DNA of 64,000 bases from Dehalococcoidales bacterium (lineage in GTDB: Bacteria; Chloroflexota; Dehalococcoidia; Dehalococcoidales; RBG-16-60-22): positions 659-64,658 of the forward strand of contig DAOULX010000008.1 in the NCBI GenBank assembly GCA_034414775.1, in the 5' to 3' direction. Position numbers and translations under genes: made by a program. Positions 12,386 through 62,658 of the stretch are shown piece by piece. Below the pieces are notes generated by a model. The model had not been told where the DNA came from. It made no database searches and saw only the letters and a program-made list of their open reading frames with translations. How positions within the stretch are numbered: the first letter of the stretch is position 1; every line of letters begins with the position of its first letter.

Positions 12386-13282
12386 TTAAAGCGTCCCTCT
12401 TAACCTCGGGTCAAGGGCATCTCTGAGAGCATCCCCAACTATGTTAAAGGCAAAGACAACTAACATAATAGCCGCCCCGGGAGCGAAAGAGAGAATCGGT
12501 AGCTTTACCAAGTAGCGATATCCTTCATTGACCATGGCGCCCCATGCAGCGCCCGGTGGTTTTATCCCGATACCGAGAAAGCTGAGGCCTGCCTCGGCAA
12601 GAATGAGGAACCCTAGCTGTAAAGTAACTACCACGATAATCGGCGCGATGGCATTCGGCAAGATATGGCGTAACATAATACGGGGATGACTAGCACCCAT
12701 CGCCCGTGTCGCCAGGATATAGTCATTTTCTTTGATGGAAAGAGCCATGCCGCACATTACCCTGATATAGCCGGGAATGGTGGCGATACCGAGGGCCAGG
12801 ATAACATTCTGGATACCCCCTCCAAGTACCGCCGCTAACAAAAGGGCAAGCACAATCATGGGAAAAGGCATGAGAATATCGGTGAACCTCATGATAAGCA
12901 TATTTATTGTACCGCCAAAATATCCGGCAAGTATGCCCAACGTCACGCCTATTACTGTGGCAATGGAAACGCTCACAAACCCCACCGTCAACGCCGTCCT
13001 CGTACCGTAAATGAGCCGACTTAACGTGTCTCGGCCAATGGGGTCGGTGCCCAGTAGATGTTCACGGCTCGGCTGCTGCAATATATTGCTCAGCTCCTGT
13101 TTATAGGGGTCGTAAGGCGCCAGTTGCGAGGCGAAGATGCCTGTCAACGCCAGGATTATTAGTATCAGGAGACCGAAAATGACTATTCTACGCTGGAAAA
13201 ATACTCTTACGAAGCGCCTCCACTCATTTACCCTCGGAGGAGCTTCAGAAAAACCAGTGGCGGTAATAACATCTGTTTTCAT
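12386..13282 (-). CDS. ABC transporter permease, DppC/OppC-type (paralog of 1782-2696)
   Basis: It shares SEAPPRVNEWRRF and LSFLGIGIKPPGAAWGAMVN with the first cassette and ends ..GDALRDALDPRLRG. Confidence 0.9.
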   Translation of the reverse strand: MKTDVITATGFSEAPPRVNEWRRFVRVFFQRRIVIFGLLILIILALTGIFASQLAPYDPYKQELSNILQQPSREHLLGTDPIGRDTLSRLIYGTRTALTVGFVSVSIATVIGVTLGILAGYFGGTINMLIMRFTDILMPFPMIVLALLLAAVLGGGIQNVILALGIATIPGYIRVMCGMALSIKENDYILATRAMGASHPRIMLRHILPNAIAPIIVVVTLQLGFLILAEAGLSFLGIGIKPPGAAWGAMVNEGYRYLVKLPILSFAPGAAIMLVVFAFNIVGDALRDALDPRLRGTL

Positions 13283-13295
13283 ATTTTAAAATCTC

Positions 13296-14255
13296 TTAAG
13301 CATACTGTATCCTGGGGTCGAGCCAGCCATAGGCGATGTCTACAATCAGATTGGCTAATACTACTACCACAGCGAAGACTAAAGTACATGATTGTACTAC
13401 TGCATAGTCATGAGAAAAGATACTGGTCACCATTAGATAGCCGATACCGGGAATGGAGAACACGGTTTCAACAATCACCGAACCGCCGATGATAAATCCC
13501 AGTTGAAGCCCGAGAACGGTAACAACCGGGATGAGGCTGTTTTTCAGGACGTGTTTCATTATTATGATACGCTCGGCTAAACCCTTGGACCAGGCGGTCC
13601 TAATGTAGTCCTGGCGGATAACTTCAAGCATGCTTGACCTCTGCAGGCGCGCTATCCCGGCTAGCGCCCCGATGGAAAGACAGATAACGGGCATGATTGC
13701 CTGTTTCGTGTGTTGCCAGACATCTGTAAAAGGTGAGGTATAACCGATTATCGGTAACCAATTGAGCTTGAGACCGAAAAGGTAAATCATCAGTACCCCC
13801 AGCCAGAAAATGGGAATGGTGATACCGATATACGATGAGGGCGTTATTATCCTGTCACCCCACCCGCCGCGCCTCATAGCGGCCAGTACGCCGGTCATAA
13901 TACCCAGAACCGTACTGATGACAAATGCTTCCAGTCCCAGGTTTATGGTTACCGGATAACGCTCCCGGAGTAATGTGCCGACCGGTACATGATGAAATAT
14001 TGAATGTCCGAAGTCGAATCTAATTACACCGGAAACCCAGTTAGCGTATTGTACCATGATGGGCTTGTCCAGCCCGAACTCCTGCCGCAGCTTTTCTATC
14101 CCCTCCTCGGATAGAGTGGATAACTGCTGACTCTGGCCGATATAGATGATAAGCGGGTCGCCGGGCAGTAATCTCATGGCGAAAAAAACAATAACTGTTA
14201 CCATCAACAGACAAAATATCGCCAGTAGCACCCGCCGAACAATATACGTTATCAT
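13296..14255 (-). CDS. ABC transporter permease, DppB/OppB-type (paralog of 2697-3653)
   Basis: 319 aa, starting MITYIVRRV and ending VDIAYGWLDPRIQY. Confidence 0.9.
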   Translation of the reverse strand: MITYIVRRVLLAIFCLLMVTVIVFFAMRLLPGDPLIIYIGQSQQLSTLSEEGIEKLRQEFGLDKPIMVQYANWVSGVIRFDFGHSIFHHVPVGTLLRERYPVTINLGLEAFVISTVLGIMTGVLAAMRRGGWGDRIITPSSYIGITIPIFWLGVLMIYLFGLKLNWLPIIGYTSPFTDVWQHTKQAIMPVICLSIGALAGIARLQRSSMLEVIRQDYIRTAWSKGLAERIIIMKHVLKNSLIPVVTVLGLQLGFIIGGSVIVETVFSIPGIGYLMVTSIFSHDYAVVQSCTLVFAVVVVLANLIVDIAYGWLDPRIQYA

Positions 14256-14451: not shown

Positions 14452-16083
14452 TTACTTTTCCAGCCAGTCGTTCCACATCGACCAGTATGTATAGTCAAGG
14501 TCCTTAAATAAGTCGGTATGGAAGTTTGGCCCGCAAGCGGAAGTTGCCATGTTCATGGTCAACGGAATAAACATGGCATCCAGTCCAGCCTGAGTAACCA
14601 TTTGCTGGGTCAATTTACGCATAGTGGTTATATCCGATGCCTGGATCAGCTTCGCGCAAAGGTCGAGATATGCCTGGGACTTGGCCATGCTCGCGAACTT
14701 CATAATTGGCTCCGGACCTACATGGTCAAGCCAGCCGACAGAGAATTCCGGGTTGATAGCGAGGGTACCTATGAGAAGGCCTTCCCAGCCCATGTTGACG
14801 GAACCCCAGAATCTGCCGACATCAGCAGCATCGATTTCGATATCAATTCCGATTTCTTTCAGGTAATTCTGTATGATAGCCCCTGCGTTCTCTGCGCCTT
14901 GGGGTACCATCAATTTCGTCTTGAAGCCGTCGGCAAAGCCTGCCTCTGCCATTAATTCCCTGGCTTTCGCCACGTTGTAGGCACGTTCCGGATAGTCGGG
15001 GTTGTAACCGGCGGTACCTTCGTGTGTCGGCTGGTTCACGGGCTCCTGGAAGCCAAACCCGAGCGCATCAGCCATCGCCTGGCGGTCAATGGCGTATTCA
15101 ACCGCTTCACGTACTTTCTTGTTGGCGAATGGTGAAGCCGGATCCACGCTATCAGGGTATAACACACTATATATCATCGGGGTCTCGATTACCTGGTAAC
15201 CCAAATTCTTCAGGTCGGCCGCTTGCTGAGCCCTTGTGTACAGCCAGATATCCGCCTGCCCCGCCTGCATCATCGCCGAAGCTGTCGTCGGATCCTTAAC
15301 AGTAATGTACTCTACAGAATCAAGATAGGGGAATCCAGTGCGCCAGTAGCCGTCAAATTTGTTCATCTTAAGAACCACATCGCGCTGGAAATCGGTAGTC
15401 TGGAATGCCCCTGTTGAAGTGGAATGGTTGATAGCCCAATCTTCTCCGTTTTTCTGACAAGCGGTGGGGGAGTACATAAAGACCCGCGTCAGGTTGTAAA
15501 TAACCTGGTTATTCGGGGCATTAAGAGAAATTTTTACAGTGTAGTCATCGGTAGCTTCTATCTTATCAATGTACTTGCCGTTGGATAAAATGCCCGCGTC
15601 CTTGGCTCCCTGGAAGCTCCAGACGACGGCCGTAGCATTTAAGGGAGTCCCATCCTGGAACTTGACGTCTTTCCTCAGGTGAATGGTAATGGTCTTCATG
15701 TCGGATGACATCTCGTAACTTTCCGCAAGACTGGGCGAAAAATCCCCGTTTGTTTTGAGGTCGAATATCCTTTCCGAAAATATCGTTGCGACGCCATTAT
15801 CGCTGAACGATTGTTTCGGATAGTAGCCAATATTCTGGGGGGTATGTGCACCACCAGCAATAACCCTCACATTACCGCCGTATTGGGGCTGACCGGGGGT
15901 GGGTTCTGGTGCAGTCGTCGGCGCTGGTGCAGATGTCGTTGCTGGTGCGGATGTCGTTGCTGGTGCGGATGTCGTTGCTGGTGCAGTCGTCGGCGCTGGT
16001 GCAGGTGTTGTTTCGGCACAACTGCTGAAAATCAAACTAGTCAAGAGTAGTACTATCAGGGACATAACTAACAATTTTTTCAT
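14452..16083 (-). CDS. ABC transporter substrate-binding lipoprotein, family 5 (paralog of 4057-5682)
   Basis: GGAGGG precedes the ATG. The lipobox (IFSS-C) is followed by an (APATTS)n linker. The body contains VKFQDGTPLNATAV and VREAVEYAIDR. Confidence 0.9.
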   Translation of the reverse strand: MKKLLVMSLIVLLLTSLIFSSCAETTPAPAPTTAPATTSAPATTSAPATTSAPAPTTAPEPTPGQPQYGGNVRVIAGGAHTPQNIGYYPKQSFSDNGVATIFSERIFDLKTNGDFSPSLAESYEMSSDMKTITIHLRKDVKFQDGTPLNATAVVWSFQGAKDAGILSNGKYIDKIEATDDYTVKISLNAPNNQVIYNLTRVFMYSPTACQKNGEDWAINHSTSTGAFQTTDFQRDVVLKMNKFDGYWRTGFPYLDSVEYITVKDPTTASAMMQAGQADIWLYTRAQQAADLKNLGYQVIETPMIYSVLYPDSVDPASPFANKKVREAVEYAIDRQAMADALGFGFQEPVNQPTHEGTAGYNPDYPERAYNVAKARELMAEAGFADGFKTKLMVPQGAENAGAIIQNYLKEIGIDIEIDAADVGRFWGSVNMGWEGLLIGTLAINPEFSVGWLDHVGPEPIMKFASMAKSQAYLDLCAKLIQASDITTMRKLTQQMVTQAGLDAMFIPLTMNMATSACGPNFHTDLFKDLDYTYWSMWNDWLEK

Positions 16084-16539: not shown

Positions 16540-16587
16540 GAATTGGAAAAATTACAAGATCGAATCATGGCATCGATTCGGAATTAA
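16540..16587 (+). pseudogene. remnant of another SnoaL-like paralog (N-terminal coiled-coil words fused to C-terminal words)
   Basis: It reads ELEKLQDRIMASIRN*. Gene 277-816 has LEKLEDRVIELE near its start and EAASIRKIEDAR* at its end. The duplicated flank 16573-16623 follows directly. Confidence 0.35.
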
Positions 16588-16661
16588 AGAAGCAATAACT
16601 CCTGTATACGTGATTAGGTGATACTTACCCCAAAAATAGTAAGATTCAGGTAAGGAGCAAA

Positions 16662-39627: not shown

Positions 39628-39666
39628 CTGGATTCCCGCTTTCGCGGGAATGACGTCGGGAATGAC
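39628..39666. repeat. GC-rich hairpin repeat (GTCATTCCCGCGAAAGCGGGAATCCAG type) plus partial duplicate
   Basis: ctggattcccgctttcgcgggaatgac is followed by gtcgggaatgac. The same module occurs at 45909-45936 (ctggattccagctttcgctggaatgaca). Confidence 0.8.
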
Positions 39667-39677
39667 GTTGGGTTTTT

Positions 39678-41831: not shown

Positions 41832-41948
41832 CCTTTGTCATCCTGAGCACCCTTTGTCATCATGAGCGGAGCGAAGGATCTCGGGGCGTGGTGGATCCAA
41901 ACTCCCCACCCCGAGATTCTTCGGTCGCTACGCTCCCTCAGAATAACA
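41832..41948. repeat. inverted pair of TGTCATYCTGAG-type repeat modules
   Basis: tgtcatcctgagc (41836) and tgtcatcatgagcggagcgaaggatctcggggcgtggtgg (41856-41894) face ccccaccccgagattcttcggtcgctacgctccctcagaataaca (41904-41948). Confidence 0.8.
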
Positions 41949-45029: not shown

Positions 45030-48000
45030 TTACCGGAAATCCTTCGAAGCCGGCACCTTGTCCAAAGCAGTAAACGGCTCCACCCGCGTGATGACGAGGT
45101 TGCAGGTCCCCTCCCGCCGGGTGAGACGCCCGCTGACCACCAGGAACGGCATCTTGAACTTGGGCTCGTGGCGCCCGTAGACCTTGGGGAAGACCATGCA
45201 GGGGATGTGCCCGAACTCGTCCTCCAGGGTGATGAAGGTCACCTTGCCCTGCGGCCGCTGCCGGCGGATGACCATCCCGGCCGTCGTCACCGGGGCGCCG
45301 TCCCCGAGCCGCGCAATGTCACGGCTGGTGCGCACTTCCGGCCCGAAACCGGGCCGCAGCCGGGACATGATGTGCCCGGCGGGAAAGAGGCTGAGGACGC
45401 TGTACTCTTCTTTCATGCGCTCCCACTCGCCGGGGGCCTCCAGCTCCACCAGGTCCTGCGCGACGGGCAGGGGAAGGGGCAGCTGGGAGTTGACCGGCCG
45501 GTAGCGCAGGCCGATCTCCCATTTGACCTTGCGGCGGTTCGACTCCAGGCCGTCGAAGGCCCCGGCGCCGGCCAGGTTGAGGGCGACCTCTTCCAGCACG
45601 CCGGTGCGCTCCAGGAAGTCCCCGATGCCGCGGAACTCGCCGTTTTCACGCGCCTTTTCGATGGCCTCGGCGGCGGCCCCACCCAGCCCCAGGACGTTGA
45701 GGAAACCCAGGCGCAGGGCGGCGTGAATAAATCCCTCTCTAGCTCTCCCCTTACGAAGGGGAGAGGATGGGCCTTCAAGCCCTTCTTTTGATTTAGCACC
45801 ATCTGTTTCCCTCCTTCGTAAGGAGGGATTAAGGGAGAATTCCTCAACTCTCCCCCTTCCGTAAAGGGGGATTAAGGGGGATTTTCCCCCTCCTCTCCCA
45901 ACATCCGACTGGATTCCAGCTTTCGCTGGAATGACACTAAACGAACTGTCATTCTGAGGGAGCGCCGCGACCGAAGAATCCCGGAGAGAGGCGGTACACT
46001 CCCCACCCCGAGATCCTTCGCGGAGTTTACCCTGAGTGTAGCCGAAGGGCTCAGGATGACAACTATGGAGCTCAGGATAACAAAAAAGGGAATCGGGATG
46101 ACATTCTTCTATAACGCACTTGGCCCGGCTCTTGTTTATATCCGGATTCAGCACCCGTATCCCGTGCCGTCGGGCGTCCTCCTTGAGTGTCTCCAGGTTA
46201 TAGAAGCCCATCGGCTGCTGGTTGAAGATGGCCACGAAGAACTCCAGCGGGTAATGGTACTTCATCCAGGCCGCCTGGTAGGCCGTCACCCCGAAGGCGA
46301 AGGCGTGCGATTCCGGGAACATGTACTGCCCGTTGAACTTCTTAAAGACCTTTTCGGCCGATGCCTCGTCGACGCCTTTTTCGGCGGCCCCGGCGAGGAA
46401 TTTTTGCCGGTAGTCCTCGATGAGCGCCTCGTTGTGCTTTCTGCCGAAGGCGCGGCGCAGCCGGTCCGCCTCGCTGGGCGAAAAGCCGGCCACGTCGATA
46501 GCGAGCTGGTTGACCTGGTCCTGAAAGAGGACGATGCCCAGGGTGCGCTCCAGGGCCCGCCGCTCCAGCGGGTGGTCGTAGGTGACTGGCTTGCGCCCGG
46601 TGCGCCGGGACAGGTACTCGTGCACGCCGTGGTTAACGCCCACCCCCGGCCGCACCGCCCCCACCTCGTGGGCCATGTCCAGCAGGTTGCGCGGCCGCAG
46701 CCGGGTGATGGTCTGCATCTGAGCGGCCGATTCCACCTGGAAGATGCCGATGGTGTCCCCACGGCAGAGCATGTCGTAGACGTCATTGTCCTCGAAGTCG
46801 ATGCGGGAGAGGTCGATGCGGCGGCCGGTGCGCTCTTTGATAAGGCCGACGGCCTCCTGCATCTGGGAAAGGGCCCCCAGGGCCAGGAAATCGATCTTGA
46901 CGAAACCGGCGTCATCGATGCTGTCCTTGTCCCACTGGCAGACGTAGCGGCCCTCGATGGCGCCCCGCTGCACCGGCACGATGTCGATGAGGGGGCTGGA
47001 CGAGAGAATCATGCCGCCGGGGTGCTGGCCCAGGTACTTGGGAAAGCCGTCCAGCTCGGCGGCGAGGGCAATCAGGTCCCGCCAGACCGGGGCGTCCGTC
47101 CGGTCCTTAAAAGCGGGTATCTTCTTCATCTTTTCTTCGAGCTTGCGGGCGCTGCCCCAGTCCACGTTTTTGGCAAGCTGGTCGACCTCCGGCTCCGGCA
47201 GGCCCAGCGCCTTACCGAGGTCGCGCACGGCCCCCTTGACCATGTAGGTATTGATGGTGCCGGTCAGGGCAGCGTGCCGCCAGCCCCATTTCTCGTGGGT
47301 GCGCAGGATGAGGTCCTCGCGGATGCTGCGGGGAAAATCGAGGTCGATGTCCGGCACGTTGGTCATGACGTCCTCGGGAAGGAACCTCTCCAGCGAGAGG
47401 CGGTACTGGAGGGGGTCGATGTGCGAGAGGCCGATGAGGTAGCCGACCAGCAGTGCCACCGAGGAGCCGCGCCCCCGCCCCGGCGGGGCCTCCTCGAGGG
47501 TCAGGGAGGGGTCGCTGAGCCCCTGCTCGATCATGACCTCCCGCCCCAGATTGATGACCTCGTGGTACATCAGCAGGAAGCCGGCCAGGTTATAGCGGTT
47601 AATCAGACGGAACTCCTCGTCGAGGCGAGCGCGCACGGCCGGGGTGACGGAGCCGTAGCGCCGCACGGCCGCCTCCGCGCAGAGCTTTTCCAGGTAGCTC
47701 TCCGGGGTGAAGCCTTCCGGCACGGGGTAGTCCGGAAAGGTGTAATCCAGGTTCCGCGTCAGGTCGAACGAGCACCTCCCGGCGATTTCCACGGTATTGG
47801 CCAGGGCCTCCGGGCAGTCGCGAAAGAGCTCCTCCATCTCCGAGATAGGCCGCAGGTAGAACTCGGAGTTGGGGCGCCTTTCCCGGTGCGTCTCCTCAAG
47901 ACTCTTGCACTCTTTAATGGCGACCAGACAGTCCTGGAGACGGTGGCGCTCGCGGACGTGGTAGTGGACGTTGCCGGTAGCGGCCACCCGGGCGCCGGTC

Positions 48001-48566
48001 TCCCGGGCCAGCCCCAGCAGGGCCAGGTTGCGGGCCGTATCCCCGTAGACCAGGTTCTGCTGCAGCTCGATGTAGTAGCTGTCCGTCCCGAACCAGTCCA
48101 GATACCGACGGACAAGCTCCCTGGCCGCGTCCGGGGGCGCCTTGCCGATTAACTGCGCCAACTCGCCTTTCGGGCAGCCGGACAGGGCGATGAGGCCTTC
48201 CGCGTGGGCGGGGAGGAGGGCGGAATCGAGCTCGGGCTCGTAGCGCTCGCCGGAGGCATGGGCGGCGGTGATGAGACGGCAGAGGTTGCGGTAGCCCCGG
48301 CTGTCCTTCACCAGCAGGGTCAGGTGGCCGCCGCCTTTGAGGGTCATCTCCGTGCCGATGATGCCGGGCACCTCCAGGGAGCGGGCCAGCCGGGCGAAGC
48401 GCATCGCCCCGCAGAGGTTATCATGGTCGGTGACGGCCAGGGCGCGGTAGCACAGGTCTTTGGCGCGCGCCAGCAGCTCCTCCAGCGACGAAGCGCCGTC
48501 GTGGAAGGAGTAGTAGCTGTGGCAGTGAAGCTCGGCGTAAGGCATGGTTCCAAATCGGTCTGTCAT
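45030..48566 (-). CDS. dnaE2: error-prone DNA polymerase III alpha-type subunit DnaE2 (ImuC) carrying a repeat-derived in-frame insertion
   Basis: It has the PHP N-terminus YAELHCHSYYSFHDGASSLEELL..ALAVTDHDNLCG and is collinear with the DnaE body. The first ATG (48566) lies inside a repeat module, so the ATG at 48545 (MPYAELH) is the more likely start. Confidence 0.85.
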   Translation of the reverse strand: MTDRFGTMPYAELHCHSYYSFHDGASSLEELLARAKDLCYRALAVTDHDNLCGAMRFARLARSLEVPGIIGTEMTLKGGGHLTLLVKDSRGYRNLCRLITAAHASGERYEPELDSALLPAHAEGLIALSGCPKGELAQLIGKAPPDAARELVRRYLDWFGTDSYYIELQQNLVYGDTARNLALLGLARETGARVAATGNVHYHVRERHRLQDCLVAIKECKSLEETHRERRPNSEFYLRPISEMEELFRDCPEALANTVEIAGRCSFDLTRNLDYTFPDYPVPEGFTPESYLEKLCAEAAVRRYGSVTPAVRARLDEEFRLINRYNLAGFLLMYHEVINLGREVMIEQGLSDPSLTLEEAPPGRGRGSSVALLVGYLIGLSHIDPLQYRLSLERFLPEDVMTNVPDIDLDFPRSIREDLILRTHEKWGWRHAALTGTINTYMVKGAVRDLGKALGLPEPEVDQLAKNVDWGSARKLEEKMKKIPAFKDRTDAPVWRDLIALAAELDGFPKYLGQHPGGMILSSSPLIDIVPVQRGAIEGRYVCQWDKDSIDDAGFVKIDFLALGALSQMQEAVGLIKERTGRRIDLSRIDFEDNDVYDMLCRGDTIGIFQVESAAQMQTITRLRPRNLLDMAHEVGAVRPGVGVNHGVHEYLSRRTGRKPVTYDHPLERRALERTLGIVLFQDQVNQLAIDVAGFSPSEADRLRRAFGRKHNEALIEDYRQKFLAGAAEKGVDEASAEKVFKKFNGQYMFPESHAFAFGVTAYQAAWMKYHYPLEFFVAIFNQQPMGFYNLETLKEDARRHGIRVLNPDINKSRAKCVIEECHPDSLFCYPELHSCHPEPFGYTQGKLREGSRGGECTASLRDSSVAALPQNDSSFSVIPAKAGIQSDVGRGGGKSPLIPLYGRGRVEEFSLNPSLRRRETDGAKSKEGLEGPSSPLRKGRAREGFIHAALRLGFLNVLGLGGAAAEAIEKARENGEFRGIGDFLERTGVLEEVALNLAGAGAFDGLESNRRKVKWEIGLRYRPVNSQLPLPLPVAQDLVELEAPGEWERMKEEYSVLSLFPAGHIMSRLRPGFGPEVRTSRDIARLGDGAPVTTAGMVIRRQRPQGKVTFITLEDEFGHIPCMVFPKVYGRHEPKFKMPFLVVSGRLTRREGTCNLVITRVEPFTALDKVPASKDFR
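45731..46103. repeat. composite block of hairpin / TGTCATYCTGAG modules lying inside the dnaE2 reading frame
   Basis: Hairpins lie at 45743-45765, 45808-45828, 45851-45871 and 45876-45890. The GGAATCCAG-type hairpin lies at 45909-45936. tgtcattctgagggagcgccgcgaccgaagaatc starts at 45947, its inverted partner ends at 46061, and further heads lie at 46066-46080 and 46088-46103. Confidence 0.8.
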
Positions 48567-48649
48567 TCCGAGCGATAGCGAAGAATCTCGGAGAGGGGCG
48601 GCGGAAAAGTCCCACCGCCCCGGGACCCTTCGCTCCGCTCAGGGTGACA
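48561..48649. repeat. inverted pair of TGTCATYCTGAG-type repeat modules in the dnaE2 5' region
   Basis: tgtcattccgagcgatagcgaagaatctcggagaggggcggcgg faces cccaccgccccgggacccttcgctccgctcagggtgaca. Confidence 0.8.
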
Positions 48650-48717: not shown

Positions 48718-49002
48718 CTAATAATCCTGTTGATACCACTCCCCGCTGATAATGTCCTTGTAAAGCACCGCCCGGTGCCCGGAGGCGAGGCGGACACTGT
48801 AATAGAGGCGCGCCACCGGCTCGCGGCGCCACCACTCGTCGTCGATGCGCCAGCAGTCCTTGATGTCCGTCACGACCTGACGCCGCTTTGCCCGGACGGC
48901 GGCCGGCAGCCCTTCGGCGTCTTCCTCGACGTGCACCGGCTCCGGGGCATTTACCGGTTTGCTGGCGTCAGCGCGTAGCGTCTCTCCGGTATCCGGGACC
49001 AC
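48718..49002 (-). CDS. small Trp-rich conserved-looking protein between imuB and dnaE2 (function unknown)
   Basis: 94 aa containing CWRIDDEWWRREPVARLYYSVRLASGHRAVLYKDIISGEWYQQ. The ATG start overlaps the imuB 3' end by 52 nt. An alternative GTG at 48936, after GGAG, would avoid the overlap. Confidence 0.55.
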   Translation of the reverse strand: MVPDTGETLRADASKPVNAPEPVHVEEDAEGLPAAVRAKRRQVVTDIKDCWRIDDEWWRREPVARLYYSVRLASGHRAVLYKDIISGEWYQQDY

Positions 49003-50129
49003 GGCTCGACCTCCTTGACCGTGAACACCTGGGGATTGCCCAGCCGGAACTCAAGCTGGCGGATATCGTCCATCAGGTGGTCTTTGGCCCTGACCCTGGA
49101 GAACAGGCTGCGCTGCCGTCCCCGCGGGTAGCCCAGGCCGGTGATCCGCAGGCCCACCTGCTCCACGGGGCCGGGCTGGGGATAGCTCTCCAGTACCCGC
49201 TTGATGCGGTTAACGGCGGCCCGGATATCCATGGCCGGCTCCTTGAACTGGATGCCCCTCTCCCAGTGCTCCGCCCCCCAGGTACGCGTCCACAGGGTCA
49301 GGCCACGGATACCCCTCCCCCGGGAGCCGTCCCGCGCCATGGCCTTGACGAGAAGATCCTCCACCGCCACCAGGACGGCCTCCAGGGAGACGGTCACCGA
49401 GGTCAACGCGGTGCTCTCCTCGATGGTCTCCTCGCCGCCGCGGGGATACAGCGGCGTGTCGTCTTCGCCCCGCGCCAGCGCCGCTATCCTCCGGCCCTCC
49501 TCGCCGAACTGGGACTGGAGGGGGCCGGGGGCCAGGGCCGCCAGCTGCCCCAGGGTATTTATCCCGAAATCGTGCAGGCGGTCTTTAATCCTGATGGAGA
49601 CGGGCAGGACGTCGCAGGGCAACTCCCGGAGGAAATCCCCCGCCTCCCCCGCCAGTATCCGGTGCCCGCCGGGAGGGCCGCGGCGGGTGGCCAGATACGC
49701 CAGGAACTTGTTCCCGGCAATCCCCAGGCAGGGGGAGAAGATATCGGGTACGGCTTCCCTCATCGCCGCCAGCAGGGCGTCATCATCCGGGTAGATAAGC
49801 TGGAGCCCGTCCACGCCGACGTAGGCACAGCCCAGCTCGTCGCCTTCCACCAGAGGGCTCCTCTCTTCCAGCGCGTCCAGTATCTCATCGAAGGCGGACC
49901 AGTAGCGGGGCATATCGGCGGGGAGCAGTCGGGCCTCCCCATAGCGGGCCAGGGCCTGCTGGAGGGGCATGCCGGATTGCAGGCCTTCCAGCCCGGGGGA
50001 GTAGTCCAAGACGAGCTTCTGCGAGCCCGCGGCGGCGGTTATCACCGCCGGGCGGCCCTGGATATCCGGTTGCTTCCGGACCTCGCACATGAGGGGAAAA
50101 TGCGGCAGCAGTATACAGAGTATTCTCAT
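48951..50129 (-). CDS. imuB: ImuB, Y-family-polymerase-like mutasome subunit
   Basis: It begins MRILCILLPHFPLMCEV, where DinB has its catalytic acidic residues, as expected for ImuB. The IMS-like body contains GIAGNKFLAYLA and HDFGINTLGQLAAL. The start at 50129 is preferred over the ORF-track start at 50165. Confidence 0.8.
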   Translation of the reverse strand: MRILCILLPHFPLMCEVRKQPDIQGRPAVITAAAGSQKLVLDYSPGLEGLQSGMPLQQALARYGEARLLPADMPRYWSAFDEILDALEERSPLVEGDELGCAYVGVDGLQLIYPDDDALLAAMREAVPDIFSPCLGIAGNKFLAYLATRRGPPGGHRILAGEAGDFLRELPCDVLPVSIRIKDRLHDFGINTLGQLAALAPGPLQSQFGEEGRRIAALARGEDDTPLYPRGGEETIEESTALTSVTVSLEAVLVAVEDLLVKAMARDGSRGRGIRGLTLWTRTWGAEHWERGIQFKEPAMDIRAAVNRIKRVLESYPQPGPVEQVGLRITGLGYPRGRQRSLFSRVRAKDHLMDDIRQLEFRLGNPQVFTVKEVEPWSRIPERRYALTPANR

Positions 50130-50151
50130 GGTTTCACCCCGGCAAGTAACC

Positions 50152-50181
50152 ATTATATAGAACATTAGTTCTGTTTGTCAA
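50152..50181 (-). promoter_or_regulatory. SOS-type promoter: TTGACA / TATAAT with a Cheo-type LexA box in the spacer
   Basis: On the minus strand, TTGACA (50181-50176) is followed by an 18-nt spacer containing the palindrome AGAAC-ATTA-GTTCT (50159-50172) and then TATAAT (50157-50152). The imuB ATG is at 50129. Confidence 0.65.
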
Positions 50182-55286: not shown

Positions 55287-55323
55287 TGTCATTCTGAAGG
55301 CACGAAGCGACCGAAGAACCTCG
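55287..55323. repeat. single TGTCATTCTGA-type repeat module at the etfB / pseudogene junction
   Basis: tgtcattctgaaggcacgaagcgaccgaagaacctcg. Confidence 0.75.
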
Positions 55324-62581: not shown

Positions 62582-62658
62582 CGGGGCGTGGCGCAGCATG
62601 GTAGCGCGTCTGAATGGGGTTCAGAAGGTCCCCGGTTCAAATCCGGGCGCCCCGACCA
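62582..62658 (+). tRNA. tRNA-Pro (anticodon GGG), CCA encoded
   Basis: Hand-folded cloverleaf. Acceptor stem CGGGGCG/CGCCCCG, D stem GCGC/GCGC, anticodon stem TCTGA/TCAGA with loop AT-GGG-GT, T arm CCCGG-TTCAAAT-CCGGG, then ACCA. Confidence 0.9.

Follow-up and report, generated by a model that had tools for sequence, protein, structure and literature searches.

The gene for the error-prone DNA polymerase DnaE2 in a 64,000-nt stretch of Dehalococcoidales DNA (hereafter the window) is interrupted by 128 codons of palindromic repeat DNA, which occupy the turn of a ß-hairpin and leave the reading frame open. We consider it likely that this insert arose as small, non-autonomous palindromic repeats stacked up in the turn, that it is read through as part of the protein, and that selection has filtered it for arrangements that keep the frame. 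The observations from which this interpretation starts are the identity of the repeats, the position of the site, its recurrence across species, the conservation of the reading frame and the purifying selection on the gene. The kind of insertion was already known; what is new is the Dehalococcoidia host, the recurrent hotspot at a single turn and the size of the stacks. An earlier note on this DNA had described hairpin repeats in frame within dnaE2 and assigned them to the same families as intergenic repeats at four named loci, which we confirm. Two things go beyond it: the turn is a lineage-wide hotspot, and repetitive extragenic palindromes (REPs) in dnaE2 are already described in the literature.

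The insert and its repeat units

In the ORF list of the window, dnaE2 spans 45030..48566 on the minus strand and encodes an error-prone Pol III alpha-like polymerase, as assigned from Pfam, NCBIfam, homologues and dN/dS. The ORF has the 1178 aa given for it previously, but the true start is likely Met8 (window position 48545), giving 1171 aa; homologues and the NCBI gene call begin at this residue, and the first seven codons of the ORF fall within an upstream repeat. The best match at the subfamily level is NCBIfam PRK05672, 'error-prone DNA polymerase' (880 bits, model positions 4-1047); the score misses the curated cutoff of 939, which the insert probably accounts for. Pfam identifies PHP, pol3_alpha, finger, HHH_6 and OB domains in this order, and the catalytic motifs are preserved at aa 405 (PDIDLDF) and aa 557 (KIDFLALG). 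Directly upstream lies an imuB-like Y-family polymerase gene (48951..50165, minus strand; IMS domain PF00817), which together with dnaE2 makes up an imuB-dnaE2 mutagenesis cassette. The same gene order is found in L001, L064, L065 and L188.

Alignment of orthologues, DNA-level comparison and stop counts place the insert at 45720..46103 (minus strand; 384 nt, aa 822-949), where it takes the place of a single Gly/Asn ß-turn codon of relatives, the Gly being replaced. The segment had earlier been put at 45731-46103; it is real, but slightly larger. On its left, the codons for RAKCVIEE (46104..46127, minus strand; from alignments) form the first strand of the conserved ß-hairpin, and on its right those for ALRLGFLN (45696..45719, minus strand; from Pfam and alignments) form the second strand, which leads into the helix-hairpin-helix (HhH) motif. 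In the alignment to Taq Pol III alpha, query residues 814 and 953 pair with Taq residues 877 and 889, so that DnaE2 has ~127 extra residues in this interval. Without the insert, DnaE2 aligns gap-free to Taq 817-950, and likewise to E. coli Pol III alpha. The insertion point is the turn E-E-G-A, equivalent to about G884-E885 in Taq and D828-G829 in E. coli. The site therefore aligns to the ß-hairpin turn just ahead of the HhH motif, and the alignment to solved structures suggests that this position is compatible with the fold. A structure prediction was run with regard to a surface loop, as the earlier note had envisaged, but was too poor to place it. AlphaFold2, applied to full-length DnaE2 with a 47-sequence alignment, gave a mean pLDDT of 52 and a pTM of 0.37, and the model was not used, as the low confidence of the insert is indistinguishable from that of much of DnaE2.

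The insert contains no in-frame stop codon, compared with 1, 12, 3, 8 and 6 stops in the other five frames, and base shuffles put the probability of a stop-free insert at 0.003. This bears out the previous description of a frame that stays open; the insert peptide quoted at the time matches the sequence exactly. Eight short inverted repeats were located within the segment, where the earlier note had counted at least eight hairpin or half-palindrome units, and the mRNA strand of the insert folds at z = -4.65 relative to shuffles. A word-index protein search with the 128-aa insert gave no matches. With the same query, an exhaustive HMMER scan of 1.84 billion representative proteins returned 6 hits, of which the four examined are spurious ORFs spanning repeat arrays, which makes the search uninformative on other host proteins.

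Inteins, too, are large in-frame insertions that leave a C-family polymerase gene functional, and they occur in the DnaE genes of cyanobacteria (PMC3919608). In principle, the segment could be an intein or another self-removing element, in which case the mature protein would lack it, and Cys is indeed the first residue of many inserts. Yet a Pfam search gave no intein or Hint domain, and the last residues of the insert, ...FIHA before Ala, are not the splice-junction residues His-Asn before Cys/Ser/Thr. Furthermore, inserts at this site comprise 13-243 aa of unrelated sequence, and are thus highly variable in both length and sequence, unlike DnaE inteins. For a self-splicing RNA, Rfam had no match at gathering score and returned only a chance-level Twister-P5 at E <= 1. 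We regard the probability of a self-removing element as negligible.

Judged by its sequence, the insert holds at least four repeat families, some of them nested within others (all coordinates on the minus strand). At the left junction, two truncated A-repeat 'heads' (TGTCATCCCGA... and TGTTATCCTGAGC...; 46067..46103) encode the peptide CHPDSLFCYPEL. They are followed by a full A element of 115 nt (45947..46061; peptide CHPEP...REGSRGG...RDSSVAALPQND), composed of two TGTC-tagged REP-like arms inverted around a variable stem-loop. The ends of the A element read TGTCATyCTGAG and CTCAGAATGACA, and an intergenic relative lies at 41855-41948. Nested in the left arm is a 27-nt mini-hairpin, CCTTCGGCTACACTCAGGGTAAACTCC (46022..46048), which also occurs in the C-element loops of the relative L064. 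The B unit, GTCATTCCAGCGAAAGCTGGAATCCAG (45909..45935), is a CGTC/TGTC-tagged REP encoding VIPAKAGIQ. It has 8-bp stem arms (45913-45920 and 45925-45932), a 4-nt loop and the 3-nt tail CCA, and its six-frame translation yields VIPAKAGIQ, SFPRRRES and LDSRLRGND; the unit GTCATTCCnGCGAAAGCnGGAATCCAG codes for VIPAKAGI. The dnaE2 copy carries the tag variant TGTC, while the tags of such units at other loci are CGTC in L016 and TGTC in L019. The F unit, present at other loci, has an 8-bp stem and a 5-nt loop. Further to the right lie a C-short element (45838..45885; AAATCCCCCTTAATC, a hairpin and GAGTTGAGGAATT; peptide KSPLIPLYGRGRVEEF) and a C-long element of 113 nt (45729..45841) with the inverted ends AATTCTCCCTTAATC and GCTAGAGAGGGATTT and two internal hairpins. 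The C-long element is orthologous to the insert of L064.

These families recur between the genes of the window at 39.63, 41.84-41.95, 48.56-48.65 and 55.29 kb. In the imuB-dnaE2 spacer, an A-like repeat (48561..48649, plus strand) runs antisense to dnaE2 and overlaps the first ATG of the ORF; this spacer is also occupied by repeats in L016, L025 and L036. An intergenic A element (41836..41948, plus strand) is preceded by a head fragment and so repeats the order of head fragment and full element seen in the insert. The B family is represented in the 64 kb of this genome by the copy inside dnaE2 and one intergenic, CGTC-tagged copy with an extra head (39628..39672, minus strand; unit proper 39628-39655, CGTCATTCCCGCGAAAGCGGGAATCCAG), and the A family also by a single arm (55287..55323, plus strand). 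The two-arm inverted layout of the A element is found in the window copies and in 78 metagenomic copies of 47-243 nt. Among 123 metagenomic A-element copies, four lie in frame in genes, which encode an Lhr helicase, a chorismate synthase, a pseudouridine synthase and a methyltransferase.

Recurrence and turnover at one turn

The turn is filled in many relatives and empty in others. Exactly at this position, 62 of the 120 closest proteins hold 13-243 aa, and at the DNA level 42-399 nt are present there in 27 of 57 GTDB species representatives, so that related genomes with and without the insertion both exist. All 28 inserts (27 species and the window) have a length divisible by three, and their 1570 codons contain no in-frame stop, compared with 39-126 stops in each other frame. 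Repeat-derived inserts were also found in two further DnaE2 loops, one in the PHP domain (core aa ~76-80) and one in a linker (core aa ~881-900).

In comparison with the two nearest relatives, both of which bear inserts, dnaE2 has a dN/dS of 0.15-0.19 at a dS of 0.37-0.46. This shows purifying selection on the host gene, which still looks functional. A 128-aa loop beside a DNA-binding motif could plausibly impair the enzyme, and the earlier note had raised the possibility that the insertion killed the gene so recently that stops have not yet arisen. We consider this extremely unlikely and the claim refuted: the low dN/dS was obtained in a lineage that shares part of the insert, none of the 28 inserts is out of frame or carries a stop, and a whole subclade of otherwise conserved proteins has kept a decayed 20-aa remnant at the PHP site. 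The other possibility named at the time, a tolerated in-frame loop comparable to the palindromic elements of Rickettsia, is supported by the dN/dS, by the part shared with L064 and by the 27 of 27 in-frame, stop-free inserts of the species representatives.

Close relatives document how fast the contents of the inserts change. L064, which stems from an independent JGI metagenome, shares the right ~190 nt of the window insert and carries 24-nt units nested in hairpin loops, while L065 has only a collapsed remnant of 39 nt. The inserts of P0005 and P0016 are identical over 47 nt at the right end and differ in their left parts, and P0009 and P0010, at an aa distance of 2.4-4.2% from this group, are empty at the turn. 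In 30 of the 120 proteins, the nearest neighbour is in the opposite filled or empty state. Shared parts lie on the right in the window and L064, P0005 and P0016, and L006 and L044, on the left in L012 and L022 and in L046 and L062, and on both sides in L020 and L021. Growth that always proceeds from the left junction was considered and rejected, as the side of the shared part differs between pairs. The divergence of most orthologous inserts is similar to that of third codon positions, or greater. Conservation exceeds that of the flanking coding DNA in two shared segments, one with 7 differences in 117 nt vs 13% in the flanks, the other with no difference in 47 nt vs 6-11% in its flanks. Nested and deleted derivatives are directly observed, as are further permissive loops in DnaE2 and in-frame copies of the A repeat in other proteins.

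Assemblers do struggle at this turn, as the contigs of three species representatives end inside inserts. The left half of the window stack appears to rest on one dataset. The sole other copy of this exact sequence, in GCA_964393175.1 (contig CAYMSP010000014.1), is 100% identical over 7.5 kb and probably derives from the same data; it is not taken as independent confirmation. A mis-join that produced the stack or its left half is nevertheless very unlikely. Its chance of keeping the frame would be one in three, and it would rarely be free of stops, as the shuffles indicate. Moreover, the right half is orthologous in the independent metagenome of L064, and the architecture of the left half, CHPEP..AQGKLREGSR...RDSSVA.LPQND, recurs in the DnaE2 proteins P0040 and P0051. 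As a general explanation, the assembly artefact considered in the earlier note is hard to reconcile with long-read contigs of 0.13-1.56 Mb that carry inserts at the same turn. Examples of contigs from long-read Dehalococcoidia genomes with filled sites are CAVSFE010000002.1, CAWCLJ010000003.1 and CAVXAM010000006.1.

Relation to known palindromic repeats

In-frame palindromic repeats in functional genes are known from the Rickettsia palindromic elements (RPEs; Ogata et al. 2000, 2002, as summarised in PMC10969869). The inserts described here resemble them in that small palindromes lie in frame in unrelated functional genes and add extra peptide at positions judged to be fold-compatible. In addition, the B unit encodes VIPAKAGI, a peptide listed for the CGTC-1 REPs of R. 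conorii, whose intragenic CGTC repeats have been equated with RPE-4 and RPE-6 (PMC3733652); the tie between the B unit and RPEs consists of this shared peptide and that equation only. RPEs belong to an obligate intracellular alpha-proteobacterium, whereas the host here is a free-living member of the Dehalococcoidia. A single codon position here accommodates stacked and nested units of several families, reaching up to 243 aa, and the same turn is filled in about half of the related species, with differing contents.

GTAG- and CGTC-tagged REPs in replication and repair genes, including dnaE2, were surveyed by Di Nocera, De Gregorio and Rocco in 2013 (PMC3733652). They reported REPs in the dnaE2 genes of Opitutus terrae (Oter_4053, aa 934-971), Sphingomonas wittichii (166-246), Rhodopseudomonas palustris (128-157) and Erythrobacter litoralis (175-203), in the R. 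conorii dnaE gene (RC1211, aa 853-861), and in genes for helicases and pseudouridine synthases; replication and repair genes are the sole REP-tagged genes of some species (PMC3733652). CGTC REPs are present in tens to thousands of copies per genome and have CGTC at one end, a stem of 8-9 bp, a loop of 4-5 nt and a 3-bp tail, their CGTC-1 peptides are VIPAKAGI, SFPRKRES and DSRFRGND, and a dedicated transposase was not reported (PMC3733652). The B and F units fit this anatomy with their tag, 8-bp stem, 4-5-nt loop and 3-nt tail, and the peptides of the B unit correspond to those tabulated for R. conorii and S. wittichii. In contrast, the inserts of the survey comprise 7-82 aa as single units, dimers or groups, and are said to hit one functional class of genes at different sites (PMC3733652), whereas here a single ß-turn is reused throughout a bacterial class. 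Families A, C, D and E are unmatched to the families named in that survey.

As short, non-autonomous hairpin repeats in many copies, the units also resemble REPINs and MITEs. The A element, with two inverted REP-like arms around a spacer, is built like a REPIN, and the C and A elements share with MITEs their inverted ends and the lack of coding capacity of their own. Unlike MITEs, they show no target-site duplication. The tag is TGTC or CGTC rather than the GTAG typical of RAYT-linked REPs, and a non-exhaustive search found neither a RAYT or other transposase nor a parent insertion sequence.

Proposed growth of the stack and its consequences

We propose that REP/REPIN- and MITE-like palindromic repeats piled up in the DnaE2 ß-hairpin turn before the HhH DNA-binding motif. 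With the polymerase still under purifying selection, only arrangements that kept the reading frame and had no stop codon would survive, and the repeats would consequently be read through and translated as a variable, probably disordered, surface loop. Such a loop is presumably harmless, and the repeats are presumably moved by an enzyme. The stack would grow as new units insert beside or inside resident hairpins and shrink by deletions between repeat arms, which may explain why close relatives differ in content or have an empty site. Tolerance alone does not account for the occupancy, as ~47% of species are filled at one turn and, in 532 kb of dnaE2 neighbourhoods, no gene besides dnaE2 has an in-frame repeat copy. 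Intergenic copies in these neighbourhoods amount to ~1.15 kb in total, compared with 4.7 kb at the turn.

One answer may be a targeted landing site, where the repeats or a mobilising enzyme recognise the DNA sequence or structure of the turn or the heads already resident there. This overlaps with the repeat-stack explanation and mainly concerns why the turn recurs. The occupancy of the turn compares with ~7% for neighbouring intergenic spacers, by a rough estimate. At least five unrelated element families abut the junctions directly, in both orientations, and insertions are found on either side of the Asn-Gly turn codons. Since the elements are mostly open in only one to three of six frames, far more insertions must have occurred than have persisted. 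Additional repeats in the locus accompany 12 of 28 filled but 5 of 30 empty turns (p = 0.04), and heads are stacked before full elements both in the insert and in intergenic copies. However, the empty sites have no DNA motif in common apart from what encoding the conserved amino acids requires, and target-site duplications are visible neither in a comparison of 28 filled with 30 empty sites nor at 45 metagenomic copies. Old insertion junctions may have decayed, which bears on the absence of such duplications. Nor is dnaE2 the dominant home of the A element, as 0 of 120 metagenomic A-element loci encode DnaE2. Growth is not polar, with new material at either end or in the middle depending on the pair, and one ancient insert that attracted further copies would look alike. 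On balance, targeting is possible but rather unlikely.

Alternatively, the loop or a regulatory RNA structure could be adaptive and tune polymerase activity, partner binding or expression, thereby altering mutation rates; similar speculation has already been made for REP-tagged repair genes (PMC3733652). In line with this, REPs of several phyla are enriched in replication and repair genes, and in some genomes no other gene contains them (PMC3733652). In the 532 kb, dnaE2 bears its in-frame copies at three sites, and the mRNA of the insert is strongly structured. The two segments that are more conserved than their flanks run contrary to a purely neutral loop, and one hairpin shows a compensatory double change. 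On the other hand, content, length (13-243 aa) and families are wholly different between close relatives, half of the species are empty, and peptide conservation goes no further than each repeat family itself imposes. The divergence of most inserts is neutral-like, and the one A-element arm pair tested, at its internal loops, gave no covariation signal (12 of 37 complementary vs 10.9 expected). An adaptive role is therefore decidedly improbable, and we favour the repeat stack that is tolerated and filtered for frame.

A wider proposal is that the turn is an actively reused landing site across Dehalococcoidia, and possibly in other phyla with REPs in dnaE2 or dnaE, kept by site-specific insertion of single-stranded DNA or by selection on the mutasome. 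We think this unlikely. If it were true, a mutagenic polymerase would have acquired a naturally hypervariable loop through active reuse, and the two over-conserved segments would reflect either constraint or the repeated delivery of one unit.

Coding palindromic repeats, long called a Rickettsia peculiarity, are common in these uncultivated free-living bacteria. At a single, defined place in the structure of a translesion polymerase, they supply dozens of natural alleles that are empty or filled with 13-243 aa, and these alleles make testable the question posed in 2013 of why REPs occur so often in replication and repair genes. In practical terms, contigs break at the turn, start codons are mis-called inside repeats and the curated DnaE2 model scores the protein under its cutoff.

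An in-frame repeat stack at a turn of DnaE2

The 1178-aa ORF at window 45030..48566 (-) encodes a DnaE2-type polymerase, as the earlier note had stated. Its Pfam domains are, in order, PHP, pol3_alpha, finger, HHH_6 and OB, and its top NCBIfam model is PRK05672 'error-prone DNA polymerase', which is covered over model positions 4-1047. An imuB-like Y-family polymerase gene lies directly 5' of dnaE2. When the protein is aligned with Taq Pol III alpha, residue 814 pairs with Taq 877 and residue 953 with Taq 889, leaving about 127 extra residues. The insert comprises exactly aa 822-949 (window 45720-46103, 384 nt) in place of a single Gly codon. The insert of about 372 nt previously placed at 45731-46103 is therefore real, but extends 11 nt beyond that boundary.

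Alignment with orthologues, which the earlier note had suggested for defining the insertion point, places it in the turn of a beta-hairpin (..KCVIE-E-G-ALRLG..), immediately N-terminal to the HhH motif. Minus the insert, DnaE2 can be aligned gaplessly with Taq alpha 817-950, and the alignment with E. coli alpha 760-898 needs a gap of one residue. The turn corresponds to about G884-E885 of Taq alpha and about D828-G829 of its E. coli counterpart, and the hairpin has exactly the canonical length in relatives with an empty turn. We infer that the turn is surface-exposed; an AlphaFold model of the whole protein (mean pLDDT 52) was too poor to inform on the insert.

On the coding strand, the insert contains two truncated 'heads' of the A repeat (a family with two REP-like arms inverted around a spacer) and a full A element of 115 nt, in which a variable stem-loop separates two TGTC-tagged inverted arms and a 27-nt mini-hairpin is nested in the left arm. 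These are accompanied by one B unit (GTCATTCCAGCGAAAGCTGGAATCCAG) and by two C elements, one short and one long, both of which have inverted ends and contain hairpins. Eight short inverted repeats were found within the insert, in line with the earlier count of at least eight hairpin or half-palindrome units, and the mRNA strand folds with a z of -4.65 relative to shuffles. The same repeat families also occur between genes of the window, at 39.63, 41.84-41.95, 48.56-48.65 and 55.29 kb, as had been observed. The reported open frame was likewise borne out: the insert has no stop in the dnaE2 frame, versus 1, 12, 3, 8 and 6 in the other five, and a stop-free frame arises in 0.3% of its base shuffles.

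The earlier note had considered a very recent inactivation of the gene. The catalytic motifs are intact, and the non-insert codons give a dN/dS of 0.15-0.19 at a dS of 0.37-0.46 against the two nearest relatives, L064 and L065 (both JGI metagenomes). Moreover, the right ~190 nt of the insert are common to L064 in identical arrangement, so the insert is older than the divergence of the two and has been carried under purifying selection. Together, these observations refute a recent inactivation.

Occupancy and turnover of the turn among relatives

The window itself derives from an uncultured Dehalococcoidia MAG, and all close DnaE2 homologues come from Dehalococcoidales and Dehalococcoidia metagenome bins. 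In 58 of the 120 closest proteins the turn is one residue (lengths ~1042-1045 aa), and in the other 62 it is filled with 13-243 aa of recognisable repeat peptides in many combinations. Because protein databases hold intact ORFs only, occupancy was tested again at the DNA level. One genome per GTDB species yielded 62 loci, with both flanking anchors located in 57. The search for relatives with and without the insert, which the earlier note had also proposed, thus returned 27 loci filled with 42-399 nt and 30 empty ones. Insert lengths are divisible by three in 27/27 filled loci, and none contains a stop. With the window insert added, these amount to 1570 codons with no in-frame stop, versus 39-126 in each of the other five frames.

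A misassembly at repeats had been raised as a further explanation. Three further contigs terminate within an insert at the turn. Filled turns are present on contigs of 0.13-1.56 Mb, which makes an artefact very unlikely as a general explanation for the recurrent inserts. A loop tolerated in frame, as proposed by analogy with Rickettsia, is supported by the low dN/dS, the in-frame inserts of relatives and the RPE and REP precedent.

The inserts turn over rapidly. Compared with the window, the L064 insert has extra 24-nt mini-hairpins nested in both C hairpin loops and is without the A and B part. L065 (90% protein identity) has only a 39-nt collapsed A hairpin and a C-end remnant at the turn, and resembles a deletion derivative. 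In the genes of the proteins P0005 and P0016, the last 47 nt on the right of the insert are identical and represent a D-element tail, with unrelated left parts; P0009 and P0010, just 2.4-4.2% away at the protein level, have an empty turn. For 30 of the 120 proteins, the nearest neighbour is in the opposite state. At least five unrelated families adjoin the turn junctions in both orientations, and insertions are found both before and after the Asn-Gly turn codons. For most elements just 1-3 of the six frames are open, so surviving inserts represent a filtered minority of insertion events.

Orthologous inserts mostly diverge at the rate of third codon positions or faster, which fits an unconstrained loop. 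Two shared segments are more conserved than the coding DNA that flanks them. Window 45729-45845 differs from L064 at 7/117 nt (6%), versus 13% in flanking coding DNA and 24% at third codon positions, and one pair of changes in the shared segment is compensatory within a hairpin (GGGC..GCCC to GGTC..GACC). The P0005/P0016 segment differs at 0/47 nt, versus 6-11% in the flanks. Constraint, gene conversion or recent exchange are possible causes of this over-conservation.

Other insertion sites and host genes

DnaE2 has a second repeat site in a PHP-domain loop at core aa ~76-80 (window about 48327-48341, where it is empty), recorded in L013, L014, L016, L032, L035, P0091 and P0120. Full A elements occupy it in P0091, P0120 and L014. 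Throughout one subclade, what persists is a 20-aa remnant in a decayed state (PTPxSFGRxDxSGLPQDDSL). A third site, the linker after the HhH motif (core aa ~881-900), is used in marine and SAR202 lineages (L038, L051, L052, L034) with inserts of up to 124 aa; that of L038 includes the marine repeat peptide SSPFVKGGWGDF.

Across 532 kb of window and dnaE2 neighbourhoods, the turn accounts for 4.7 kb of insert-like DNA, and a further 1.15 kb or so lies outside it, all intergenic or in dnaE2 itself; no in-frame copy was found there in any other gene. Inserts are thus far commoner in dnaE2 than in the genes around it. This enrichment could be accounted for jointly if the turn tolerates inserts, constraint is relaxed because the polymerase is an accessory one, and resident copies attract new ones. 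A true insertion preference may also play a part.

When metagenome contigs were scanned for the right arm of A, at least 120 loci were returned, and none of the 120 among the matches listed encodes DnaE2. The 78 two-armed copies among these matches are laid out as in the window A element and mostly measure 60-100 nt. Four of 123 A copies among the matches listed lie in frame within other real genes, in unrelated metagenomes: an Lhr helicase (L092:1884-6713, -), a chorismate synthase (L080:1686-2936, +) in which another, dissimilar repeat peptide (VIASRSSERNEEAAKQS) is also present, an RsuA-type pseudouridine synthase (L179:2490-3593, -) and a methyltransferase (L127:172-1485, -). In-frame survival is therefore general for these repeats.

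In a subfamily of A elements 80 nt long (L068, L071, L077, L081, L082, L085, L119, L132 and others), conservation extends to the flanks (AAAAnnCnnTTTT upstream, AGGnGnGGGAC downstream) and to an inner GTATTT...TTATGAG. This points to a larger unit that is conserved as a whole, or to a fixed post-terminator position, in one organism group.

Relation to known repeats, and further observations in the window

In-frame palindromic repeats are a hallmark of Rickettsia palindromic elements (PMC10969869). The GTAG- and CGTC-tagged REPs were defined by Di Nocera et al. (2013; PMC3733652). In their survey, copies lying inside genes were over-represented in those for replication and repair, and the authors speculated on consequences for mutation rates. 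Their REP-carrying genes include dnaE2 of O. terrae, S. wittichii, R. palustris and E. litoralis, dnaE of R. conorii, and helicases and pseudouridine synthases, two classes that also host the A repeat in frame in metagenomes. The intragenic CGTC repeats of R. conorii were equated with RPE-4/RPE-6 (PMC3733652). The window B unit fits the CGTC definition (tag, 8-bp stem, 4-nt loop, 3-nt tail) and encodes the peptide VIPAKAGI listed for the R. conorii CGTC-1 REPs. REP/RPE-type repeats read in frame within a repair polymerase are thus a known kind of feature. A literature search of incomplete coverage gave no description of such repeats in Dehalococcoidia, of the A, C or D families, or of one DnaE2 turn as a recurrent hotspot. 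Three aspects seem new: the lineage of the host, the way several families are stacked and nested to reach as much as 243 aa, and the repeated use of a single beta-turn by about half of related species.

The first ATG of the dnaE2 ORF falls within the terminal GTCAT of an A-like repeat (48561-48649) that takes up the spacer between imuB and dnaE2. The NCBI gene call, like the homologues, begins at Met8 (window 48545; 48545-48566 runs from there back to the first ATG), so the repeat occupies the expected position of the ribosome-binding site. Spacer repeats also occur in L016, L025 and L036. Just 5' of dnaE2 lies a 94-aa ORF (48718-49002, -) with a W-rich motif, WRIDDEWWRREPVARLYY, and an overlap with the imuB end; a Pfam search with the window copy gave no match. 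An ORF of equal size and position is present in L001, L186, L187 and L188, and similar small ORFs in L064 (72 aa) and L065 (97 aa). Its product may be an overlooked partner of the mutagenesis cassette.

Elsewhere in the window, an 18-nt unit (GCTGGTGCAGATGTCGTT-like) in five to six tandem copies at 15894-16012 is probably a repetitive coding segment. Matches of 25-62 nt at 77-91% identity link 313-906 with 16543-16607 (constant offset about 15.7-16.2 kb) and 2193-2753 with 12797-13352 (about 10.6 kb), suggesting that genes or elements in the AT-richer left part were duplicated and have since diverged. The sole Rfam match at gathering score in the window is a tRNA gene at 62582-62655 (+).
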